Positions 29,665 to 39,913 of a stretch of 64,000 nt of DNA are shown in pieces (position 1 is the stretch's first letter; each line of letters begins with the position of its first letter). The translations under genes were made by a program, and so were the position numbers. A model generated the notes under the pieces. It made no database searches and had not been told where the DNA came from. It saw nothing but the letters and a program-made list of their open reading frames with translations. Location of the stretch: assembly GCA_035362335.1 (NCBI GenBank), contig DAOSDL010000005.1, positions 12,708 to 76,707 of the forward strand. The letters are read 5' to 3'. Source of the DNA: Bacteroidota bacterium (lineage in GTDB: Bacteria; Bacteroidota; Ignavibacteria; SZUA-365).

Positions 29665-30594
29665 ATGTCCGACGCGGAAATCGTTCTCTCCACGCATCAG
29701 CTCTCGAAGCGCTTCGGCAAGCGCGATGCGGTGCTGAATCTGAATCTCGAAGTGCATCGCGGCGATGTGTTCGGTTTCCTCGGGCCGAATGGCGCGGGCA
29801 AAAGTACCACCATCCGCATGGCGCTGTCGCTGATTCAGCCCACGGCGGGATCGGTGCGAATATTCGGTGCGGATGTGGCGCGAGACCGCGGCGTGCTCGC
29901 GCGCGTGGGGGGATTGGTGGAGCGCCCGGATTTTTACCTGTATCTCAGCGCGCGCCGCAATCTCGAGATCGTCTCGGCGCTGTATGGCGCGGTGAATCAC
30001 GCGCGCATCGACGAAGTGCTGGACATTGTGGGACTGAGCGATCGCGCGAACGATCGCGTCAAGGCCTATTCACACGGCATGAAGCAACGGCTCGGCATCG
30101 CACAGGCGCTGTTGCCCAATCCGGAGTTTCTCATCCTCGATGAACCCACCAACGGACTCGATCCCCAGGGCATGAAGGAAGTGCGCGAGTTGATCCTGCG
30201 CCTCAACCGCGAACAGGGTATGACCATTCTGCTCTCGTCACATTTGCTCCACGAAATCGAACAGGTGGCCACCCGCATGTGCATACTGCATCGCGGTGAA
30301 CTCGTGGTGCAGGGCAGTGTGGGCGATTTGCTCGGGCGCGACAGTATCGCGGTGCGCATCAGCATGGAGCCGATGGAGGAGGGCATGCAGGTGCTGCGCG
30401 CGATGGAGTGGGTGAGCGATCTGCGCGCGGTGGATGGGCAATGCGCCTGTGCCATGCCCGAGGCGGATCTCGCGCGCACCAATGCCGCGCTGGTGCAGGC
30501 CGGCATCGCCGTTTCGGGTTTCGCGCCGCGTCGCTCGCTTGAGGATTATTTCCTCAGCATCACGGAGGCACCGGAAGGAGGGAAGCAGGCATGA
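29665..30594 (+). CDS. ABC transporter ATP-binding protein
   Basis: Walker A GPNGAGKST, ABC signature loop YSHGMKQRLGIAQAL, Walker B LILDEPTNGLD. Real ATG at 29665. Confidence 0.88.
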   Translation: MSDAEIVLSTHQLSKRFGKRDAVLNLNLEVHRGDVFGFLGPNGAGKSTTIRMALSLIQPTAGSVRIFGADVARDRGVLARVGGLVERPDFYLYLSARRNLEIVSALYGAVNHARIDEVLDIVGLSDRANDRVKAYSHGMKQRLGIAQALLPNPEFLILDEPTNGLDPQGMKEVRELILRLNREQGMTILLSSHLLHEIEQVATRMCILHRGELVVQGSVGDLLGRDSIAVRISMEPMEEGMQVLRAMEWVSDLRAVDGQCACAMPEADLARTNAALVQAGIAVSGFAPRRSLEDYFLSITEAPEGGKQA

Positions 30595-32546
30595 TGTCCA
30601 TACGAATGCAGCGCTTACTGGCGGCGGCTGGCACCGCCACGCTCGCCCTCATCGTGTACATCATCACGCTGGCGCCGTCGGTGGATTTCATCGACGCGGG
30701 TGAGCTGGCGGCTGTGGCGCATAGTTTCGGCATCGCGCACCCCACCGGCTATCCGCTGTTCACCATGCTTGCCGGGGTATGGGCATGGCTGCCGCTCGGC
30801 GATGGCATCGTGCGTTTGAATCTGCTTTCGGCCGTGCTCGCGGCCACGGGTGTCGGCTTTCTCGTGGATGCCCTGTGGATGCTGCTGGGCATGCAGACGA
30901 GAAAAAGCGTCGGCAAGGGCGGGAAAAAAGCCGCAGCCGAGCAACGCGGCAGCTCAAGCGGATGGACGCGTAGCGCCGCCGCCGTGATCGGTGCCCTGGT
31001 CGTAGCGCTATCGCGCACGTACTGGCGCACGGCGCTTTCCATCGAAGTGTACGCCCTGCACATGTGCATGCTTGGTGTGCTGTTCTGGGCGATGCTGCAC
31101 CTGCTGACCGCGCTGTCGCGGGAGGAACAGACGCCGACGGGCACGCGCAACGCGGTACTGCTGTTGGCCTTTCTGCTCGGCCTGTCGTTCAGCAATCACA
31201 TGAGCACGATTTTCCTCTTACCGGGATTGCTGCTGGTATTCGCGCTGCTGCGGTCCAAGGGTCTGCTGCGCGTTCGACTGCTGCTCATGGCGGCGGGGGT
31301 ATTCGTGCTCGGATTGCTACCGTACCTGTACCTTCCGCTGCGCGCGGCGGCGGAGCCGGCGTTGAATTGGGGCAATCCTTCGAGTCTGGAACGTCTGCTC
31401 TGGCATGTGAGCGGCAAGCAGTACAGCGTGTGGATGTTTTCCAGCTCCGATGCCTGGCAGGAGCAATTCTCGAACATCGCCACGCTGCTGCCGCAGTCCG
31501 TGGGCTATGTCGCGCTGCTCCCCGCGCTGTTCGGCGCGGTGCTGCTGTTCCGCAGGCATGCCGTGGTGGCGGGCGGACTGCTGCTGTTTTTCGCGACCTG
31601 CATATTCTGGGCCTCGGGGTATGATATTCACGACATCGATTCCTATTTGCTGCTCGCCATTGTGGTCATCGGCTGCTGGACGGCGGTAGGCATCGATGCC
31701 TTCGTGCGAATGGCTCAGCGGCGATGGTCGCTCGCTCCGCGCTACGGTGTACTGGCGGGGGCACTGTTGATAATACCGCTTGCATTGCACGCTTCCAGCG
31801 TGTCGCAGCGCGGCAATTATCTGGTCGAGGACTACACCAAGGCCATGTTCGCTTCCTTCGAACCCGGCTCCTTGGTGCTGTCGTATCAGTGGGATCACTG
31901 GGTGTCGGCGGCGTTGTATTTTCAAATGGTGGAAGGCTGGCGCCCCGATGTGATCGTACTGGACAAGGAGTTGTTCCGGCGTTCCTGGTATCTCGACCAA
32001 CTGCGTGTGAATCATCCCGATATCTACGAAACGTCGCGTCGCGAAATCGAGGCCTTCCGCGTGCATCTCGACCGCTTCGAACGCGATCTTCCCTACGATC
32101 CAACGGCGATCGAGAACGCATTCAACGCGATGATCAACAGCTTCATCGACAGGCACATGTCGCGCGGTCCGGTGTATCTCACGCTGGAAATCGAACAGCA
32201 ATTTGCACAGGGCTATGTGCGGGTTCCGGAAGGCCTGGCCTTCCGGCTCTTCGCTCCGGATTCGCTTCCCGCGGCTGCCACGCGGAAGTTGCCCGAGCTG
32301 CGCTTCCGTCCGTTCGCCAGCGAGGAGCGCCTGGCGAAGGACATGTGGTCGATGCTCGCTTCGATGCTGGTGAATCACGGCGTGTTTCAGCACAGCAGCG
32401 GGGAATTCGACAGGGCGGACGCGGCCTTCGATGCGGCGCTGCGATATTCGCCCAGGGACGCGCGCATTCTCGAGTGGAAGCGGCGCAATACCGCGGCGAG
32501 GGCGCAGGGCGCGGCGCCGCCAATGCCGGTACCCGGCGCACCCTGA
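30591..32546 (+). CDS. Large polytopic membrane protein (DUF2723 / PMT-like glycosyltransferase-fold N-terminus) with a C-terminal TPR-like region
   Basis: 651 aa with about 11 TM segments. ATGA overlap with the ABC ATPase stop. Confidence 0.65.
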   Translation: MMSIRMQRLLAAAGTATLALIVYIITLAPSVDFIDAGELAAVAHSFGIAHPTGYPLFTMLAGVWAWLPLGDGIVRLNLLSAVLAATGVGFLVDALWMLLGMQTRKSVGKGGKKAAAEQRGSSSGWTRSAAAVIGALVVALSRTYWRTALSIEVYALHMCMLGVLFWAMLHLLTALSREEQTPTGTRNAVLLLAFLLGLSFSNHMSTIFLLPGLLLVFALLRSKGLLRVRLLLMAAGVFVLGLLPYLYLPLRAAAEPALNWGNPSSLERLLWHVSGKQYSVWMFSSSDAWQEQFSNIATLLPQSVGYVALLPALFGAVLLFRRHAVVAGGLLLFFATCIFWASGYDIHDIDSYLLLAIVVIGCWTAVGIDAFVRMAQRRWSLAPRYGVLAGALLIIPLALHASSVSQRGNYLVEDYTKAMFASFEPGSLVLSYQWDHWVSAALYFQMVEGWRPDVIVLDKELFRRSWYLDQLRVNHPDIYETSRREIEAFRVHLDRFERDLPYDPTAIENAFNAMINSFIDRHMSRGPVYLTLEIEQQFAQGYVRVPEGLAFRLFAPDSLPAAATRKLPELRFRPFASEERLAKDMWSMLASMLVNHGVFQHSSGEFDRADAAFDAALRYSPRDARILEWKRRNTAARAQGAAPPMPVPGAP

Positions 32547-32606: not shown

Positions 32607-32972
32607 TTATTCGGCTTTGCCCGGAATGGGATCCACGGCGTAGCTGGCGACCGCGCGCTCGACGGAGTCGAAGCTCTTGAACACTTTCACAAGCTGCGTG
32701 ATCATGAAGAGACTGTTGATTTTCTCGGTTACGTTGGCAATGCGCATGTCCCCACCCCCATTGTTCACCGTGGCGAGTGCGGAGATCAATGCGCCGAGTC
32801 CGGAGCTGTTCACCCATTTCAGTTTGCCGACGTCGAGCACGATTTTCAGAAAACCGTCACGCACGAGATGCTTGACGGCATCGCGAAGTTCCGTGGTGTC
32901 CGGCTCGCCCATGAGGTTTCCCTTCATCTCGAGAACGACGACGTCCCCGCGGAATTCCTCCTTGATATTCAT
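32607..32972 (-). CDS. STAS-domain anti-sigma-factor antagonist (SpoIIAA-like)
   Basis: ATG at 32972 (MNIKEEFRGDVVVLEMKGNLMG...). AGAGGAA ribosome-binding site. The conserved phosphorylatable Ser region is in NSSGLGALI. Confidence 0.8.
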   Translation of the reverse strand: MNIKEEFRGDVVVLEMKGNLMGEPDTTELRDAVKHLVRDGFLKIVLDVGKLKWVNSSGLGALISALATVNNGGGDMRIANVTEKINSLFMITQLVKVFKSFDSVERAVASYAVDPIPGKAE

Positions 32973-32997
32973 GGTGTTCCTCTGTTGTGAAAAAGAT

Positions 32998-33213
32998 CTA
33001 CTGATTGTGTCGTTTGTTGGATTGCGCGAGTTGCGCGAATTCGCAATTGCCCTGATGGGTGCAGCTGCCACAATGCGCCACTTCGCGGGGCACGGCACCG
33101 AAGCAACGTGGGCATCGGTCCGAGAGCGGATTCAGGATGAGGTAATCGCAGTGGGGACAATGCCGCTGTTCAGAGCGCAATTGTTCTTCATGCGCGCGCA
33201 GTTCGTCGCTCAT
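32998..33213 (-). CDS. Small Cys-rich zinc-ribbon-like protein (71 aa)
   Basis: CPHC...CPRC...CGSC...C pattern. Codon usage is consistent with coding sequence. No clear ribosome-binding site. Confidence 0.35.
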   Translation of the reverse strand: MSDELRAHEEQLRSEQRHCPHCDYLILNPLSDRCPRCFGAVPREVAHCGSCTHQGNCEFAQLAQSNKRHNQ

Positions 33214-33515
33214 GCGTGCGTCGGGGAGTCCAGACGCGCCCGTATGCGTCGGAGGGCTTCAGCCGCATCGATGCGCAATCTCGGTTGTGCGATGCGCAGC
33301 GCTTCGTCCAGCGAAGAGAGCTCGCCCCGCAGGTACAGCCACACATGGTATCCGAGCCGATTCCTGTCGTTCATATCCACTGTCGGGATATCCTCGACAG
33401 CGGCGTATGCCCGCGCTTCCAACGTATGTTCTGGCCATTTCCGTATGCTGGCCGCCATGATCGTGCTCCATTCCTCGCGATGGTCGCGATGGTTCAACCT
33501 CTGTGGACGAAGCAA
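33210..33515 (-). CDS. Hypothetical small protein (about 82-101 aa)
   Basis: ATGA overlap with the downstream zinc-ribbon ORF. GC3-rich codons. No recognisable domain. Confidence 0.25.
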   Translation of the reverse strand: MLRPQRLNHRDHREEWSTIMAASIRKWPEHTLEARAYAAVEDIPTVDMNDRNRLGYHVWLYLRGELSSLDEALRIAQPRLRIDAAEALRRIRARLDSPTHA

Positions 33516-33602: not shown

Positions 33603-34376
33603 TCACGGATCGAGACGGAATTTCGGATGCAGCAACTCCGCGATGTCCTTGAGGGGGAGGAGGATCTCGGTGGGACCCTGTGCGTAGGAAGCCACCTCGT
33701 AATTGTTGTAGTACAGCAGCAGGCCCTCGTCGGTAAGGGCCATGTTGTCGGGCAGCGTGAAGCGATCCCCGTCGAACCAATAGCCCGCATCACGCAGGGA
33801 TTGCTGATCGGGCACTCCGCGGATCGAGCGGAACGCTTTTTCCGCGAGCCGCAGAAGTTGATCCCGTCCGGAATCGTCGATAAGATGCCGTGGTGAGACG
33901 CTGGAGCCGTCACGGCTGTCGCACATCAGAAGTATGGAAGTGCTGTTGGGATGCGCGCCACCGGAATACACGGATTCATCCAGGCGCAGCGTCACTATGG
34001 AGGAGGATGAGAGGAGCACGCTGGTGGCGCGTTCGAGAAACCAGCCGTTGCCGAGGTCGGGGATTTCCTCGCGTGCGGCGAGGTAAGCCTCGCCCCACGC
34101 TTTGCACAGCGTGGCCGCGTCGGGATAGCCGCTGCCTTCCGAGAACGTGGCGAAGGTCAATGCACGCACCTGCGCCCGAAGGGAATCCGCCACCGCTCCT
34201 TGTCCATCGAAGCGCGGATAGCTCAACGTGATAACGGCGCCGGAGGATTGTTCGCCTCCGCAATCACCGTAGCAGGCGGTGGTGTCGGCAAGTTCGTAGG
34301 AGAAAGATGTTCCGCCATGTGGGGAGCATTGCACGAGGCCGATGGCGAGGCAAAGGGTAATGTAGAAGCGTAGCAT
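33603..34376 (-). CDS. DUF3298/DUF4163 (RsiV/PdaC-like) lipoprotein
   Basis: Lipobox LVQCS. The SGGAHP motif is typical of DUF3298. Confidence 0.68.
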   Translation of the reverse strand: MLRFYITLCLAIGLVQCSPHGGTSFSYELADTTACYGDCGGEQSSGAVITLSYPRFDGQGAVADSLRAQVRALTFATFSEGSGYPDAATLCKAWGEAYLAAREEIPDLGNGWFLERATSVLLSSSSIVTLRLDESVYSGGAHPNSTSILLMCDSRDGSSVSPRHLIDDSGRDQLLRLAEKAFRSIRGVPDQQSLRDAGYWFDGDRFTLPDNMALTDEGLLLYYNNYEVASYAQGPTEILLPLKDIAELLHPKFRLDP

Positions 34377-34505
34377 AACAGATCCCTCCGTTCAAAAAAG
34401 TGAGTAAGGAAGGGATCCGATCGGGTTGCGTGCGGGCACGCAACCCGATCGATGGCGATCGTGAATCTATGTATGGCGGACGGCGTGGGAAAGCCGCCGC
34501 AGGTG

Positions 34506-34965
34506 CTACTTCTTCTTCGAGGCGGCTTTCTTCGGGGCAGCGGCCTTCGGGGCAGCGGCCTTCGGGGCAGCGGCCTTCTTCGGAGCGGCGGCCTTCTTCG
34601 GAGCAGCAGCGGCTTTCGGCGCAGCGGCTTTCTTCGGGGCAGCGGCCTTGGGAGCAGCAGCTTTCTTCGGAGCGGCAGCGGCCTTGGGAGCAGCAGCCTT
34701 TTTCGGAGCAGCAGCGGCCTTGGGAGCAGCGGCTTTCTTCGGAGCGGCAGCGGCCTTGGGAGCAGCAGCTTTCTTCGGAGCGGCAGCAGCCTTGGGAGCG
34801 GCGGCCTTCTTCGGAGCAGCGGCGGCCTTGGGAGCGGCGGCCTTTTTCGGAGCAGCGGCGGCCTTGGGAGCGGCGGCTTTCTTCGGGGCAGCGGCCTTGG
34901 GGGCGGCGGCCTTCTTGGGAGCAGCAGCTTTCGGCGCCGCGGCGGGTTTTGCCGCTACCGTGGCT
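34506..34965. repeat. In-frame tandem nucleotide repeat (15/27/42-nt periodicity) encoding the AAAPKK tail
   Basis: Reiterated units ggcagcggccttcggggcagcggcc / cttcttcggagcggcagcggccttgggagcagcagc. Confidence 0.8.
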
Positions 34966-35534
34966 TCTTTTTTGGTTGCCTTCGCGTCTGCCATTTTGTG
35001 TTTCTCCGCTTTGTGTTTGGGGGTAGTGGATTTACCCTTGGTGGGTGTTGTCGCGTTATTGGTGTTTGCTGTGGTTGCAGAAGTTTCAAACAATGAAGCA
35101 TGGGCGTCCACCGCGCGGAGGCCGCCGGCCATCTTCCGGATAACGTCGTCGGTTTCGTCGGCCACGTAGGCCACCGTGCCGATGGTCATGCGCAATTCAT
35201 TCTTGTCAAGATTCGCGCCGGCGATGCTGTGGCTGAAGACAATCGTGTCGTCGAACAGCAATCCGTACGCACCCACGCTCTGTGTGGCATTCTGCCGCAT
35301 GAGCCATGCGAGTACTTTCGGACCGATTTTCGCGTTCTGCACGACATAGGCGAGGGCGGTGACCATGGATTCGCCGTCGCCCCAGGGACGCACGGACACG
35401 TGCACCGCCGCGGATCCGCGACGGATGATGAACACATCATCGATTTCCTGGACGACATCCTTGTAATGTTTGCCATGAATGTCCTTGAGAAAGGCCTTGA
35501 CCTTGGTACGGGTGGATTTCACTATACTGGCCAT
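34506..35534 (-). CDS. YbjN/DUF2170-like domain protein with a C-terminal histone-H1/AlgP-like Ala-Pro-Lys repeat tail
   Basis: AAGGAG ribosome-binding site, then ATG at 35534. The N-terminal about 160 aa form a globular domain. The C-terminal about 150 aa are made of (A)AAAPKKAAAPKA repeats ending in KKK. Confidence 0.72.
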   Translation of the reverse strand: MASIVKSTRTKVKAFLKDIHGKHYKDVVQEIDDVFIIRRGSAAVHVSVRPWGDGESMVTALAYVVQNAKIGPKVLAWLMRQNATQSVGAYGLLFDDTIVFSHSIAGANLDKNELRMTIGTVAYVADETDDVIRKMAGGLRAVDAHASLFETSATTANTNNATTPTKGKSTTPKHKAEKHKMADAKATKKEATVAAKPAAAPKAAAPKKAAAPKAAAPKKAAAPKAAAAPKKAAAPKAAAAPKKAAAPKAAAAPKKAAAPKAAAAPKKAAAPKAAAAPKKAAAPKAAAAPKKAAAPKAAAPKKAAAPKAAAAPKKAAAPKKAAAPKAAAPKAAAPKKAASKKK

Positions 35535-35564
35535 GCTGCAAGCTCCTTGGAATGATGTCGTGCG

Positions 35565-36233
35565 TTATTCTTTGTTCGCCGCGGCCTTCAGCAGCGCAAG
35601 CTCATCCTCGACGGAACTGCCGGCCTCCAATTTTTTGAACTCGTCATCGAGCGACGTGCTTTCGCCGGCGAGCTCCGAAAAGGCCTCGGCCTCGGATTCC
35701 ACCTTGAGCACTTTCTGCTCGTATTTATCGAAGTTGGCGAAGGCGCCATCGCCGATGCCGGCGAGACTCTGCGAGATCTGCTTCTTCGCTTTCGCCGCCT
35801 GATGCCGCGCGATGAGTGTTCCTTGGCGCACACGGGCCTCGTCGAGCTTGGCCTTGAGCTGATCGAGCTGTTGACGCATGACCACGGAAGCTTTCTTTGC
35901 CTCGGCCAGGGGCGCCTCGATATCGCTCGCAGCGCGGTCGAACATGTTCTTCTTCTCCAGCGCCTGACGGGCGAGATCGTCGCGTCCCGCATTGACGGCC
36001 TTCACCGCGCGTTCGTGCCATTCGCCCGAGAGTTTCTTCTTCTCGGCGTACTGGCGCTCGAGCTGCTTCTCGTTGGCAATGGCGGAGCCCACGGCGGTTG
36101 TCGCCTTGTTCACCGCTTCCTCCATCTCGATGACCATTTGCTTGATCATCTTCTCGGGGTCTTCCGCGCGATCAAGCAAATCGTTGATGTTCGCTTTCAC
36201 CATGTCGGAAATGCGACCGAATATACCTGCCAT
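35565..36233 (-). CDS. pspA: PspA/IM30 (phage-shock protein A / Vipp1) family protein
   Basis: 222 aa coiled-coil. N-terminus MAGIFGRISDMVKANINDLLDRAEDPEKMIKQ matches the family. AGGAGGAA ribosome-binding site. Confidence 0.9.
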   Translation of the reverse strand: MAGIFGRISDMVKANINDLLDRAEDPEKMIKQMVIEMEEAVNKATTAVGSAIANEKQLERQYAEKKKLSGEWHERAVKAVNAGRDDLARQALEKKNMFDRAASDIEAPLAEAKKASVVMRQQLDQLKAKLDEARVRQGTLIARHQAAKAKKQISQSLAGIGDGAFANFDKYEQKVLKVESEAEAFSELAGESTSLDDEFKKLEAGSSVEDELALLKAAANKE

Positions 36234-36572
36234 ACGTTCCTCCTGTGTTGGCTGCTGTCCAGCATTATTCAGAATGATACGAATATAAGGATTTCAATCG
36301 TGAATGCAACGCCTATCGCATTTCGATCAATGTTTACAGGCCTTCGCAACAGGTGCGTGCAATGCGCGCCGCGCGTACCCCACGGTGCATTGCATGGAAC
36401 GCATATAGGTGCTCACGCATCGCATGCATGTGTTACGGCCGTGGGGCAGGAAAAATGATAAGCGATAAAAATTTCCGTATCTTGCCGATGTGATCCACGG
36501 AACCCTTCAGCACGCGTCCGGGTTGTTGAGAAGCAACCGGACGTCGCACCTCCACCTTTGCGTTACACCTGT

Positions 36573-38003
36573 ATGACTCGTCCCACGCTCTTCATTATCC
36601 TCGCCCTTCTGCAAGGCGCTCCCGCATGCATGGCCCAGGGACATGCCGACCTCAACGCGACAGACGTGGCAGTCTCACAACGCGATCTGCTGCTGCATGT
36701 GCAGTGGCTCGCCGACGATGCGCGCGAGGGACGCGAGGTGGGTTCACCGGGCAACGATTCCGCCGCGTTGTACATCGAAAAGGTCTTCGCTCGTCATGGT
36801 CTGTTGCCCGCAGGTGCCGCCGGCTACACGCAGGACTTCGAATTTCAGTCGCCGACCCGACTGTTTGAACACGCGCTGAGCCAGTTGCTCTCCGATTCTT
36901 CGGGTGATGGCGCATCGGTGAATACCGAGGCACTGCAGGCCACGCTTTCGAATCTGCTGAATCCCACGGCCTCCGCGGTCGCACATGCGCCATCGTACGA
37001 AGGTTCGACATCGGGTCCCACCGCCACCATCGACGGAATACCGTCGCTGCGTGCGCGCAACGTCCTCGGTTTGATCCGCGGTACGGACGCGCTGCGGCGC
37101 GACAGCGTAATAGTGATCGGTGCGCATTACGACCATGTGGGCTGGGGAGGAATGAGTTCGCGCAATCCTGGAGGTCCCCCGGAAATTCACAACGGCGCCG
37201 ACGACAATGCTTCGGGCGTGGCGGCGATGCTTGAATTGGCGGAATACTTCGCCGCCAAACCCACGGGTTACTCGCTGCTCTTCATCGCATTCAGCGCGGA
37301 GGAGCACGGACTCATCGGCTCGAGATTCTGGGTGGCCAATCCCACCATTCCGCTCGGGCGCGTGGTCGCGATGCTGAACCTCGACATGATCGGACGTCTT
37401 TCGGAAGACAAGCGCGCGCTTACCGTGTACGGCATGCACAGCTCGTCCCGCTGGTCGCCACTGCTGGATCAGGTCAACACGGCGCATCGTTTCACCCTGC
37501 GGCGCCTTGCCGCGGGAGGCAGCAGCGATCACAGCTCGTTCATCGACGGCGGCATACCATCACTCTTCCTGTTTACCGGCTTGCATAAGGATTATCACAC
37601 GCCCACCGACGATGTGGAGAAATTGAACGTCGAGGGTCTGGAGCAGGTGAGTCGTTTCGCCGCCGACGTCCTCGCCGCCATTGATCGTGGGCCACGCCCG
37701 ACATTCAATACGGCGTCCACAGCAACCGCTTCTCCGGCGAGAAAGCCAGGGCTCGGCATTCGTCTCGATCATGCCTGGGCTGGCGAGGGGGTGCGCGTGT
37801 TCGCTGTGAAAAAGAACAGCCCCGCCGACAGCGCCGGACTGCGCGCGGGCGATGTGCTGCTCCGCGTGGGTTTCGAAGAAGTGGGAACGGTGGCCGAGTA
37901 CCTCCGGGCGATCGGGCAGGCGAGAGAAGACGCACCGCTTCCGTTGCGCATCAAACGTGGCGACGAGATCATCGTGCTGTCCATTCCGCAAGGGCAGCAT
38001 TGA
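36573..38003 (+). CDS. M28-family aminopeptidase with a C-terminal PDZ domain
   Basis: Zn ligands in GAHYDHVGWGG and NGADDNASG, plus FSAEEHGLIGS. PDZ motifs GIRLDHAWAGEGVRVFAV...GLRAGDVLL. ATG at 36573 (the track uses TTG at 36558). Confidence 0.85.
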   Translation: MTRPTLFIILALLQGAPACMAQGHADLNATDVAVSQRDLLLHVQWLADDAREGREVGSPGNDSAALYIEKVFARHGLLPAGAAGYTQDFEFQSPTRLFEHALSQLLSDSSGDGASVNTEALQATLSNLLNPTASAVAHAPSYEGSTSGPTATIDGIPSLRARNVLGLIRGTDALRRDSVIVIGAHYDHVGWGGMSSRNPGGPPEIHNGADDNASGVAAMLELAEYFAAKPTGYSLLFIAFSAEEHGLIGSRFWVANPTIPLGRVVAMLNLDMIGRLSEDKRALTVYGMHSSSRWSPLLDQVNTAHRFTLRRLAAGGSSDHSSFIDGGIPSLFLFTGLHKDYHTPTDDVEKLNVEGLEQVSRFAADVLAAIDRGPRPTFNTASTATASPARKPGLGIRLDHAWAGEGVRVFAVKKNSPADSAGLRAGDVLLRVGFEEVGTVAEYLRAIGQAREDAPLPLRIKRGDEIIVLSIPQGQH

Positions 38004-38140
38004 CGCTGCCACCGGCGCGAGCCCCACTCCGCGAGTTTGAAGGAGTATTCGCAAGCTCCCGGGATTTTCGTACCAACGCATTGAAAAAAACTTGCTACAT
38101 TATTGAATTGCTGTTGTCACACATCATAGTTCGACATACC

Positions 38141-39913
38141 ATGAAGCGCGTTCTCCTGACACTCGGCTTGCTCGCCTCCTTCGCAATGACCCTTCACGCG
38201 CAGTCGGAGGAATCCCCCGAAATCACCGTGGAGGAACTCCGCCAGCATGTCGGTCGGCTGGCCTCCGACGACTGGATGGGACGCAAGCCCGGGCACAGCG
38301 GCTGTGACGAAGCCGCCGAGTACCTGCGCGATCATCTGCGCACGGCGGGAGTGACAATGCTGGGTGAGGACGGCTTTCAGAATTTCGATATCACCACCGA
38401 CATGCTGCCTTCGCCCGATTGCGCCGCGCGCGTGGGCGACGCCGCGTTGGTAATGGACAAGGATTTTCGGCCCGTGGTGTTCTCGGGCAATGCAACGCTC
38501 AAGGCGCGTGTGCTGTGGGTGGGCTACGGTTTCGATTTTGAAAAGGATAAAAGCACGTGGCGGGATTACGAAGGCCTCGATGTGAAAGGTGCCTGGGTGC
38601 TGATTCTGCGCGGAAGCCCCGACGATAAGAGTGGTGATTACGATCCGTGGTCGTCGCTGCGCGCCAAGGCGCTCGCCGCGCGCGACAAGGGCGCCGCCGG
38701 CGTACTCTTCGTGTCCGGCCCCGTCGGCGACAAGGACGACAAGCTGGTCGATGTCCGCTGGCAGATGCAGGACACACCGATGGATATTCCCTTGTTGAGT
38801 ATTTCGCGCGGCGTTGCCGATCGGCTGCTCGATGGCGCAACCGTCGCCGAGTTGGAGGCGCGCCTCATCGCCGGCAAGCAGCCCGTGCGCTGCGCCACCA
38901 AGGGCGAGGTCGATGCCACCGTGCGCATGCTGCCCAAGACCATCACGACGCGCAATGTCATCGGCGTGGTGGAGGGAAGCGACGCCGCGTTGAAGGACGA
39001 GTACGTGCTCATCGGCGCGCATTACGATCATCTGGGCATGGGCGGTCCGGGCAGCGGCTCGCGCCGTCCCGACACCGTGGCAGTGCACAATGGCGCCGAC
39101 GACAACGCCTCCGGCACCGCAGCCGTGATGGAAATTATGGAACGGGTCGCCGCCTACAGGAATGAATTCCGTCGCAGCGTACTGGTGGCATTGTTCAGCG
39201 CCGAGGAAATGGGGTTGGTCGGATCGAAGGAGTATGTGAACAATCCGCCGGTGGATCTCAAGAAGGTCACGCTCATGTGCAATCTCGACATGGTGGGACG
39301 CCTCGACACCGCCCGCGCGATCAGCGTTGGAGGCACGGGCACGGCCAAGGATTTGAACATCATCGTCGAGGCCGCGGCGCGGCAGCATCAACTGCGCGCG
39401 ACCATGTCGCCCGAGGGCTTTGGGCCCTCCGATCATGCCGCATTTTATTCAAAGGACATCCCGGTGCTGTTTTATTTCACCGGCGTGCACGACGACTACC
39501 ATACGCCGTTCGACGACGCGGAGTTGATCAATTACGACGGACAGAAAATCGTGGCCGACATGGTCTTCGATGTGCTGCGTGATGCGGGCGGCCGCGATAG
39601 CCGACTCGTCTTCCAGGAAGCGGGCCCCAAGTCGCGTCCGCAAGGCGCGGCACGCTACAAGGTGACGCTCGGCATCATGCCCGATGTGTCTGGTGGCGAC
39701 GGCAAGGGCTTGCGCGTGGACGCGGTGATGAAGGATAGGCCCGCCGAGCGCGCGGGTTTGAAGAAGGGCGATGTGATCGTCAGCATGGAAGGAAAAAGTG
39801 TCACCGGCGTGTACGACTACATGGCGCGGCTCGGTGAATTCAAGGTGGGGCAGCGCATCAGCGTCGAGGCCCTGCGTGACGGCAAGCGTCACGTGTTTAT
39901 TGTCGAACTCTAA
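38141..39913 (+). CDS. M28-family peptidase with a PA-like insert and a C-terminal PDZ domain (paralog of the upstream gene)
   Basis: ATG at 38141 (MKRVLLTLGLLASFAMTLHAQ signal peptide). Motifs GAHYDHLGMGG, HNGADDNASGTA, FSAEEMGLVGS. PDZ segment GIMPDVSGGDGKGLRVDAV...GLKKGDVIV. Confidence 0.85.
   Translation: MKRVLLTLGLLASFAMTLHAQSEESPEITVEELRQHVGRLASDDWMGRKPGHSGCDEAAEYLRDHLRTAGVTMLGEDGFQNFDITTDMLPSPDCAARVGDAALVMDKDFRPVVFSGNATLKARVLWVGYGFDFEKDKSTWRDYEGLDVKGAWVLILRGSPDDKSGDYDPWSSLRAKALAARDKGAAGVLFVSGPVGDKDDKLVDVRWQMQDTPMDIPLLSISRGVADRLLDGATVAELEARLIAGKQPVRCATKGEVDATVRMLPKTITTRNVIGVVEGSDAALKDEYVLIGAHYDHLGMGGPGSGSRRPDTVAVHNGADDNASGTAAVMEIMERVAAYRNEFRRSVLVALFSAEEMGLVGSKEYVNNPPVDLKKVTLMCNLDMVGRLDTARAISVGGTGTAKDLNIIVEAAARQHQLRATMSPEGFGPSDHAAFYSKDIPVLFYFTGVHDDYHTPFDDAELINYDGQKIVADMVFDVLRDAGGRDSRLVFQEAGPKSRPQGAARYKVTLGIMPDVSGGDGKGLRVDAVMKDRPAERAGLKKGDVIVSMEGKSVTGVYDYMARLGEFKVGQRISVEALRDGKRHVFIVEL

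Follow-up and report, generated by a model that had tools for sequence, protein, structure and literature searches.

A classical-type pspA gene paired with a gene for a YbjN-fold protein with a polycationic tail in Ignavibacteria- and Kapabacteria-like bacteria

A 64-kb stretch of DNA from a Bacteroidota bacterium of the Ignavibacteria lineage (64,000 nucleotides of contig DAOSDL010000005.1; hereafter the window) encodes a PspA/IM30 membrane-stress protein, whose gene is followed on the same strand by a gene for a two-part protein (hereafter the partner) with an N-terminal YbjN-like domain of chaperone fold and a polycationic C-terminal tail. Judged by its conservation in related genomes, this adjacency is far beyond chance. 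On balance, our analysis favors the view that the two genes constitute a stand-alone operon in which a classical PspA is accompanied by a dedicated chaperone-fold adaptor, the tail of which would tether it to a polyanionic surface. The gene pair had been described in an earlier note made from the sequence alone; both open reading frames (ORFs), the 30-nt gap between them and the ribosome-binding sites of both genes (AGGAGG and AAGGAG) were recovered in our analysis (Table 1).

The conservation of the pair was analyzed in 80 metagenome loci encoding relatives of the N-terminal domain of the partner (N-domain; 31–75% identity), in which PspA was sought with a hidden Markov model built from hits. 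Only loci whose upstream DNA spans 750 nt or more entered the linkage counts. PspA was located directly upstream and on the same strand in all 34 informative loci of one chaperone clade, compared with none of 27 in the other clades, and the PspA-linked chaperones form a single clade in a neighbor-joining tree of the chaperone domains. The two genes are separated by –44 to +109 nt (median 10 nt) and overlap by 4 nt in seven loci. Independent gene calls with precomputed Pfam assignments gave the order PspA_IM30 and then TY-Chap1, the Pfam family of the partner domain, in loci L084–L087, L094, and L095. In a reverse look-up starting from PspA homologues (67–74% identity), TY-Chap1 was found directly downstream in five of six cases, in five unrelated neighborhoods. 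The earlier note had proposed such a survey of PspA genes for adjacent YbjN-type genes and had considered that the adjacency might be missing from related genomes; the survey was positive in the five cases above, and the pairing is kept in related genomes, with short gaps and frequent 4-nt overlaps. Its suggestion of a conserved link between IM30 proteins and the YbjN fold held for the adjacency (34/34 loci), but the principle as such is not new (Ravi et al., 2024; PMC11237479). No further conserved same-strand gene was found beside the dyad in the loci examined. Since the dyad persists amid unrelated neighborhoods without another conserved partner, it is a stand-alone operon-like unit.

The named relatives are labeled as metagenome-assembled genomes (MAGs) of Bacteroidota, Ignavibacteria/Ignavibacteriae, Chlorobi, or Candidatus Kapabacteria, and a profile of the tail-less linked clade matched 586 clusters (90% identity) at E ≤ 1e-10. 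Roughly 40 dyads were collected in this analysis, and PspA sequences amount to 1294 clusters. The nearest relative of the window is MAG JAMIQH010000021 (“Bacteroidota bacterium”), which carries the same dyad and shares approximately 89% DNA identity across the region. A contig search with the single N-domain returned one locus only, that of the 98%-identical MAG.

The pspA product matches PF04012 (PspA_IM30) with E = 3e-47 and 161.5 bits (cutoff 33.9), with residues 3–220 covering model positions 1–219 of 220. BLASTP aligned it with classical PspA of Escherichia coli (38% identity, 217 aa, E = 1e-43, residues 3–217), and both proteins share the N-terminal amphipathic helix (GIFGRISDMVKANINDLL in the window opposite GIFSRFADIVNANINALL) as well as the C-terminal SLDDxF...LKA motif (SLDDEFKKLE opposite SLDDQFAELK). 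The equivalog cutoffs of TIGR02977 (170.9 bits vs. 242.95) and NF007974 (139.7 vs. 336) were missed. By these comparisons the window protein is of the PspA type, without certified equivalog status. No difference in charge or length was observed between the PspA proteins of tailed and tail-less clades, which are mildly acidic in both.

The N-domain of the partner was assigned to PF22551 (TY-Chap1; residues 9–143, E = 5.6e-12, 45.9 bits, cutoff 27), a family entitled “T3SS (YopN, CesT) and YbjN peptide-binding chaperone 1” in Pfam, where T3SS denotes the type III secretion system. TY-Chap1 was first defined in ADP-ribose conflict systems rather than in PSP systems (PMC9503650). The score for PF10722 (YbjN) lies barely under the cutoff (21.0 vs. 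22), TY-Chap1 and YbjN are both matched at E ≤ 0.01 by each of the 20 tail-less relatives, and relatives of the partner are named “YbjN domain-containing protein” at NCBI. AlphaFold2 predicts an α-β3-α-β2-α topology for the N-domain, with a pLDDT of 87.9 in one model and of about 96 with a 50-sequence alignment. In Foldseek searches, this model matched 2PLG (Tll0839), 3KXY (ExsC), 8Q8O (BacA), 4H5B (DR1245), 1XKP, and 6VU7 (YbjN), each with a probability of 1.00; further matches were SycN/YscB, AmyR, and many T3SS chaperones. The structural matches are peptide-binding chaperones and regulators, and include BacA of Pseudomonas aeruginosa (PA14_16140), a DUF2170 protein encoded next to a PspA (TM score 0.63–0.67 at 11% identity). 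The closest to the partner family profile by sequence is 2PLG (E = 0.0086). No match of the partner to PF09938 (DUF2170) was obtained at E ≤ 0.01, and hhalign gave a probability of 0.3% for the family profile against YjfI, while YjfI itself scores 151.6 bits to DUF2170. The class-I secretion chaperones of the T3SS are small acidic dimers encoded beside a T3SS effector; the window N-domain has a pI of 8.0, and T3SS genes were found in none of the neighborhoods examined. The chaperone domain is mostly strongly acidic in tail-less members (net charge –5 to –15) and near neutral in tailed ones. No DNA-binding domain was detected in tail-less members.

The polycationic tail, which the earlier note had reported, is borne out by composition. 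Of residues 151–342, 91 are Ala, 49 Lys, and 27 Pro, mostly arranged in Ala/Lys/Pro (AKP) repeats; the net charge is +46 and the pI 11, and the tail of about 190 aa is predicted as coil by AlphaFold2 (pLDDT 50–57). Within the window, the partner gene is the sole AKP-rich ORF. Lys/Ala/Pro-rich C-terminal tails of 25–95 aa were found in about 48 of 58 close relatives, among which the window tail is the longest, and some relatives match PF07382 (HC2). A nearly identical array is kept in MAG JAMIQH010000021, which is only about 89% identical in DNA and where the tail has 181 aa compared with 190 aa in the window; the long tail is therefore not an assembly artifact.

In more distant PspA-linked members the tail is missing, and the protein ends with a short acidic segment. 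A Lys-rich tail of 47–55 aa is present instead at the N-terminus of the PspA-adjacent chaperones of L088 and L092 (GC content 28–34%), whose ORFs start after a good ribosome-binding site. A tree rooted with an outgroup unites the C-tailed proteins in a single clade and places the N-tailed pair separately, among tail-less lineages. On the basis of these sequence comparisons, cationic tails were gained independently at the C-terminus in the window clade and at the N-terminus in another clade. When a profile was run exhaustively against 1.84 billion representatives clustered at 50% identity, 19 matches were obtained at E ≤ 1e-30, about 15 of them full-length. Cationic extensions were present in seven of these approximately 15 top-clade representatives, five at the C-terminus (up to 156 aa, +62) and two at the N-terminus, whereas the 131 listed representatives at greater distance all lack a cationic extension of at least 30 aa. 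The tails are confined to the top-scoring clade, whose members are as a rule linked to PspA, and most members of the PspA-linked clade have none. Across the tails only charge density and disorder are conserved, while sequence, length, and terminus vary, which argues for a non-specific electrostatic function.

Between pspA and the partner gene no terminator-like site was found on the minus strand, in a simple scan whose counts equaled those of shuffled sequence. That scan also missed a strong hairpin about 45 nt after the partner stop codon, between the partner gene and the downstream lipoprotein gene. The 126-nt segment containing it folds with –49.7 kcal/mol (z = –5.4), and none of 200 shuffled sequences folded as well. 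Since the U-run lies about 15 nt further downstream, the hairpin does not qualify as a canonical intrinsic terminator; it probably represents the operon end or an RNA-stability element. Upstream of pspA, the best-conserved intergenic stretch in an alignment of five tailed-clade loci is a block of about 30 nt, ATTGAAATCCTTATATTCGTATCATTCTGA, which is a candidate promoter or operator. A simple sigma-70 scan gave no site at 36269–36298, but was uninformative, its counts equaling those of shuffled sequence, and no match to a sigma-54 –24/–12 promoter of the PspF type was found in 36234–36560.

Table 1. Features of the pspA–partner locus and neighboring genes in the window (positions are those of the window).
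Feature	Position	Strand	Basis
Partner gene, 342 aa, N-terminal chaperone domain and cationic tail	34506–35534	minus	ORF list, Pfam
YbjN/TY-Chap1 domain, residues 1–143, T3SS class-I chaperone fold	35106–35534	minus	PF22551, AlphaFold2, Foldseek
Disordered polycationic tail, residues 154–342: T/N/K-rich linker, then AAAPKKAAAPKA-type repeats	34509–35075	minus	Composition, AlphaFold2
36-nt tandem repeat array, 11.6 copies, encoding AKP repeats (most of the tail)	34522–34928	minus	Tandem Repeats Finder, period 36, 83% matches
Intergenic spacer, 30 nt, with Shine-Dalgarno AAGGAG (35543–35548, 8 nt before the second ATG)	35535–35564	minus	Sequence
pspA (222 aa), PspA/IM30 of classical type, an ESCRT-III-like membrane-stress protein	35565–36233	minus	PF04012 full-length match
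Shine-Dalgarno AGGAGG of pspA, 5 nt before the pspA ATG	36239–36244	minus	Read from sequence
Conserved block ATTGAAATCCTTATATTCGTATCATTCTGA, candidate promoter/operator of the operon	36269–36298	minus	pspA upstream alignment, five tailed-clade loci
Strong RNA hairpin (15-bp perfect stem 34418–34451), probable operon end or RNA-stability element	34414–34460	minus	RNA folding
DUF3298/PdaC lipoprotein gene	33603–34376
Small protein of 82–85 aa (approximately), no Pfam match	33210–33458	minus
STAS-domain (anti-sigma antagonist-like) gene	32607–33098	minus
TMEM260-like protein O-mannosyltransferase homologue	30591–32546	plus
M28-peptidase-PDZ gene, first of two in tandem	36558–38003	plus
M28-peptidase-PDZ gene, second of two in tandem	38000–39913	plus

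Proteins with the fold of the partner form dimers and hold extended peptide segments of a single specific client, as in ExsC–ExsE, CesT–Tir/CsrA, and DR1245–DdrB. Because the fold grips segments of single clients and the two genes are tightly linked in an operon, we read the partner as a PspA-binding adaptor. By analogy with the fold, it would bind a segment of PspA directly, and this binding may control the polymerization or the location of PspA. In this way the partner might fill the role of PspB/C/F or LiaI of other lineages, none of which is encoded beside the window pspA. The Ala/Lys/Pro tail, which is of the histone H1, AlgP, and PhaF type, would anchor the partner together with bound PspA electrostatically to a polyanionic surface; we consider the nucleoid or polyphosphate, which would serve for storage or positioning, the first candidate for this surface, and anionic phospholipid the second. 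The idea of a tether is strengthened by the restriction of the tails to the top-scoring clade, in which PspA linkage is the rule, and by their origin at both termini. The binding of PspA, the segment bound, and the ligand of the tail are steps that we infer from fold, linkage, and composition.

Several points weigh against this adaptor model. It is not obvious why a membrane-repair protein should be stored on the nucleoid, and the polybasic tail could equally bind anionic lipids. As the hairpin is non-canonical, transcription may read through into the downstream lipoprotein gene. The trees are neighbor-joining trees without support values. The linkage is also not absolute: a 69%-identical PspA in L093 has no chaperone beside it, and the N-tailed TY-Chap1 of L096 adjoins queG rather than pspA.

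It is less probable, although still worth considering, that the partner is a membrane recruiter, a soluble analogue of LiaI or PspB/C whose tail binds phosphatidylglycerol or cardiolipin and whose chaperone domain delivers PspA to the inner side of the membrane. PspA acts at membranes, no gene for a PspB/C or LiaI anchor is adjacent in any locus examined, and the conservation of charge density alone is what non-specific electrostatic binding would lead one to expect. However, Ala/Lys/Pro repeat tails of exactly this type have been shown to bind DNA, polyphosphate, or RNA and not membranes, PspA has its own N-terminal amphipathic membrane-binding helix, and most members of the linked clade do without a tail.

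We regard it as rather unlikely that the partner is instead a regulator, i.e., a YbjN-like protein that controls psp expression by partner switching, comparable to ExsC, CesT–CsrA, and the proposed role of BacA, and that is titrated by PspA, while in tailed forms the tail contacts DNA or mRNA directly and so controls transcription or translation. The best structural matches include ExsC, BacA was proposed to regulate the bac operon (PMC10948618), and the similar tail of PhaF is an RNA-binding translation activator (PMC12818456). Moreover, the lack of PspF and sigma-54 elements at the locus calls for another feedback mechanism, and a conserved block lies upstream of pspA. On the other hand, a tail that lacks sequence specificity and that most of the family does without cannot form the core of the regulation, and the tail-less members lack a DNA-binding domain. 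A generic histone-H1-like nucleoid protein in mere synteny with pspA, without a functional link, is very improbable: many loci do come from related lineages with wider shared synteny, but the pair is retained where every surrounding gene differs, 4-nt overlaps between the two genes are frequent, the linkage coincides exactly with a single clade of the chaperone tree, and most members have no tail.

The earlier note had likened the pair to yjfI–yjfJ of E. coli. That arrangement exists: in strain MG1655, yjfI (DUF2170) directly precedes yjfJ (PspA family), with 18 nt between them, and the operon yjfIJKL is co-regulated (PMC12492005). The likeness extends to the fold superfamily, as indicated by the match to the DUF2170 structure 8Q8O, and to the adjacency of both partners to PspA-family genes. 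It stops there, since the window PspA is classical and without significant BLASTP similarity to YjfJ (E = 1.0 compared with 1e-43 for E. coli PspA), the partner has no DUF2170 match and practically no hhalign support against YjfI, the gene order is reversed, with PspA preceding the chaperone, and yjfKLM and polyamine genes are absent from the window locus. That the window dyad is an orthologue of yjfI–yjfJ, the same ancestral dyad merely diverged, is therefore highly improbable and was rejected at the family level; the structural models indicate a kinship that is real at the level of the fold only.

Dyads of a CesT/Tir-type chaperone and PspA were identified as a conserved core by comparative genomics, and a chaperone-like role in PspA function was proposed (Ravi et al., 2024; mSystems, PMC11237479). 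Two chaperone families are named there, DUF2170/YjfI and a previously uncharacterized one represented by ANH61662.1 of Dokdonia, which is encoded upstream of a yjfJ-type pspA (ANH61662/ANH61663), followed by YqiJ/YuaF, Band-7/flotillin, and AAA+ genes. These dyads share with the window pair the conserved adjacency of a gene of T3SS-chaperone fold and a PspA-family gene. They differ in that the published chaperone lies upstream of PspA, whereas that of the window lies downstream, in that the published PspA is of the YjfJ type and that of the window classical, and in the chaperone family, which is DUF2170 in the yjfI type and YbjN/TY-Chap1 (PF22551) here, although the Dokdonia family might coincide with the latter. 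The window dyad is also stand-alone, without conserved Band-7/flotillin/AAA+ or polyamine genes: among the loci examined, no conserved same-strand Band-7/flotillin/AAA+ or spermine-synthase/ATP-grasp neighbors were found, and a Band_7 gene occurs, in divergent orientation, in L089 only. In the main text and one supplementary file of that study, we found no dyad of PspA and then chaperone from Ignavibacteria or Chlorobi and no cationic tail.

A full-text literature search for PspA together with YbjN gave a single relevant result, the crystal structure of the DUF2170 member BacA, in which a strong interaction of BacA with BacB (PspA) is cited as unpublished data (PMC10948618). BacA of P. aeruginosa (PA3732/PA14_16140) and the partner are both chaperone-fold proteins of matching structure encoded beside a PspA_IM30 gene; BacA differs in its family and low sequence identity, in being the first gene of a four-gene operon, and in having no tail.

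By sequence and fold the nearest proteins are those of the YbjN family (E. coli YbjN, Erwinia AmyR, Deinococcus DR1245, and Tll0839). DR1245 binds one specific client, DdrB. These proteins are orphan genes or have other clients, and we know of no report of a YbjN family member as a PspA operon partner or with an H1-like tail.

In its layout the partner is nearly identical to AlgP and PhaF of Pseudomonas, which combine an N-domain with a histone-H1-like KPAA/AAKP tail: the N-domains comprise about 125–150 aa and the disordered tails about 150–195 aa (124 and 195 aa in AlgP), with net tail charges of +46 in the window, +55 in AlgP, and +35 in PhaF. Their N-domains are helical or phasin domains, unrelated to the chaperone fold, and homology between such low-complexity tails cannot be demonstrated. 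The AlgP and PhaF tails bind DNA, polyphosphate, or RNA, position granules, and tether cargo to the nucleoid (PMC9239181; PMC3574117; PMC12818456). Their cargo consists of polyphosphate or polyhydroxyalkanoate granules, in place of which PspA is proposed here.

With the classical Psp system of E. coli (pspF/pspABCDE), the window locus shares the type of effector, at 38% identity, the same length, and the same termini. E. coli pspA has a sigma-54 site; this promoter, pspB/C/D/E, and pspF are all absent beside the window pspA, whose dyad is flanked by genes for M28 peptidases and a DUF3298 lipoprotein. Taken together, the principle is known. What appears to be undescribed, unless the Dokdonia chaperone belongs to the same family, is a PspA partner of this chaperone family in Ignavibacteria- and Kapabacteria-like bacteria, together with the arrangement of the genes and the tail with its separate gain at the two termini.

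To our knowledge, the regulation and targeting of ESCRT-III proteins of the PspA/Vipp1 type outside Proteobacteria and Firmicutes are largely unknown. We tentatively raise the possibility, as the more speculative extension of the adaptor model, of a lineage-wide and undescribed control of PspA, in which a YbjN-fold adaptor replaces PspB/C/F and an H1-like tail, gained independently in at least two clades, parks PspA on the nucleoid, polyphosphate, or anionic membrane and releases or positions it under envelope stress. If true, a cargo-to-polyanion tether in the style of PhaF and AlgP would be applied to an ESCRT-III-like membrane-repair protein. The compact conserved module of two genes, in which a classical PspA is matched with one specific chaperone-fold protein, is represented in these bacteria by hundreds of sequence clusters. 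The repeated gain of a tail at either end, only in the clade in which PspA linkage prevails, can be viewed as a natural experiment, suggesting that the position of the partner in the cell matters for PspA, and the widespread but poorly understood YbjN family gains a concrete candidate client. The advance is incremental over the 2024 study that established the CesT/Tir–PspA theme (PMC11237479).

Two loci depart from the common arrangement. In L093 (1–3163), PspA is encoded directly downstream of CP_ATPgrasp_2 and GCS2 (glutamate-cysteine-ligase-like) genes, recalling published associations of PspA with ATP-grasp peptide ligases. In L096 (1436–3106), a MAG sequence, the gene upstream of an Arg/Lys-rich N-tailed TY-Chap1 protein of 201 aa encodes a QueG-like epoxyqueuosine reductase, and the assumption that every cationic-tailed member adjoins pspA was rejected.

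A truncated form of the partner, P0001, was found in two Logan assemblies (L094:2900–3185 and L095). Its N-domain is 99% identical to that of the window and its ORF stops after 159 aa, owing to a 1-nt insertion in the T/N-rich linker (CCAAATAAC vs. CCAATAAC in the window). Tail coding persists in another frame to the end of the contig, with a possible restart at MADAKATKK, and P0001 was rejected as a natural tail-less allele. The frameshift may reflect a homopolymer error in sequencing or a genuine separation of domain and tail.

The tail-less clade includes 19 loci (L084, L085, and 17 from metagenomes) in which the dyad is adjacent to and divergent from ybaB–recR, which encode a nucleoid-associated protein and a recombination protein, with a convergent OmpA-like gene of 650 aa downstream of the dyad. 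This arrangement reflects lineage synteny and is probably not functional. Genes of membrane-associated families occur beside the dyad in two further loci: a divergent Band_7 gene upstream of it on a marine TARA contig (L089:1103–2581) and a GIDE-domain gene directly downstream in a low-GC genome (L088:4853–5647).

Within the tailed clade, further genes are syntenic with the dyad, among them the TMEM260-like and STAS-domain genes of Table 1. The two M28-peptidase-PDZ genes, which overlap by 4 nt and are divergent from pspA, are kept in L086, L087, and L094. The small ORF of 82–85 aa is found across the whole tailed clade at a position downstream of the chaperone gene (also L086:4870–5127 and L087:4870–5127), with 60–64% identity between genomes. 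It was considered as a third member of the operon and rejected, being syntenic in the tailed clade only and separated from the partner gene in the window by the lipoprotein gene.

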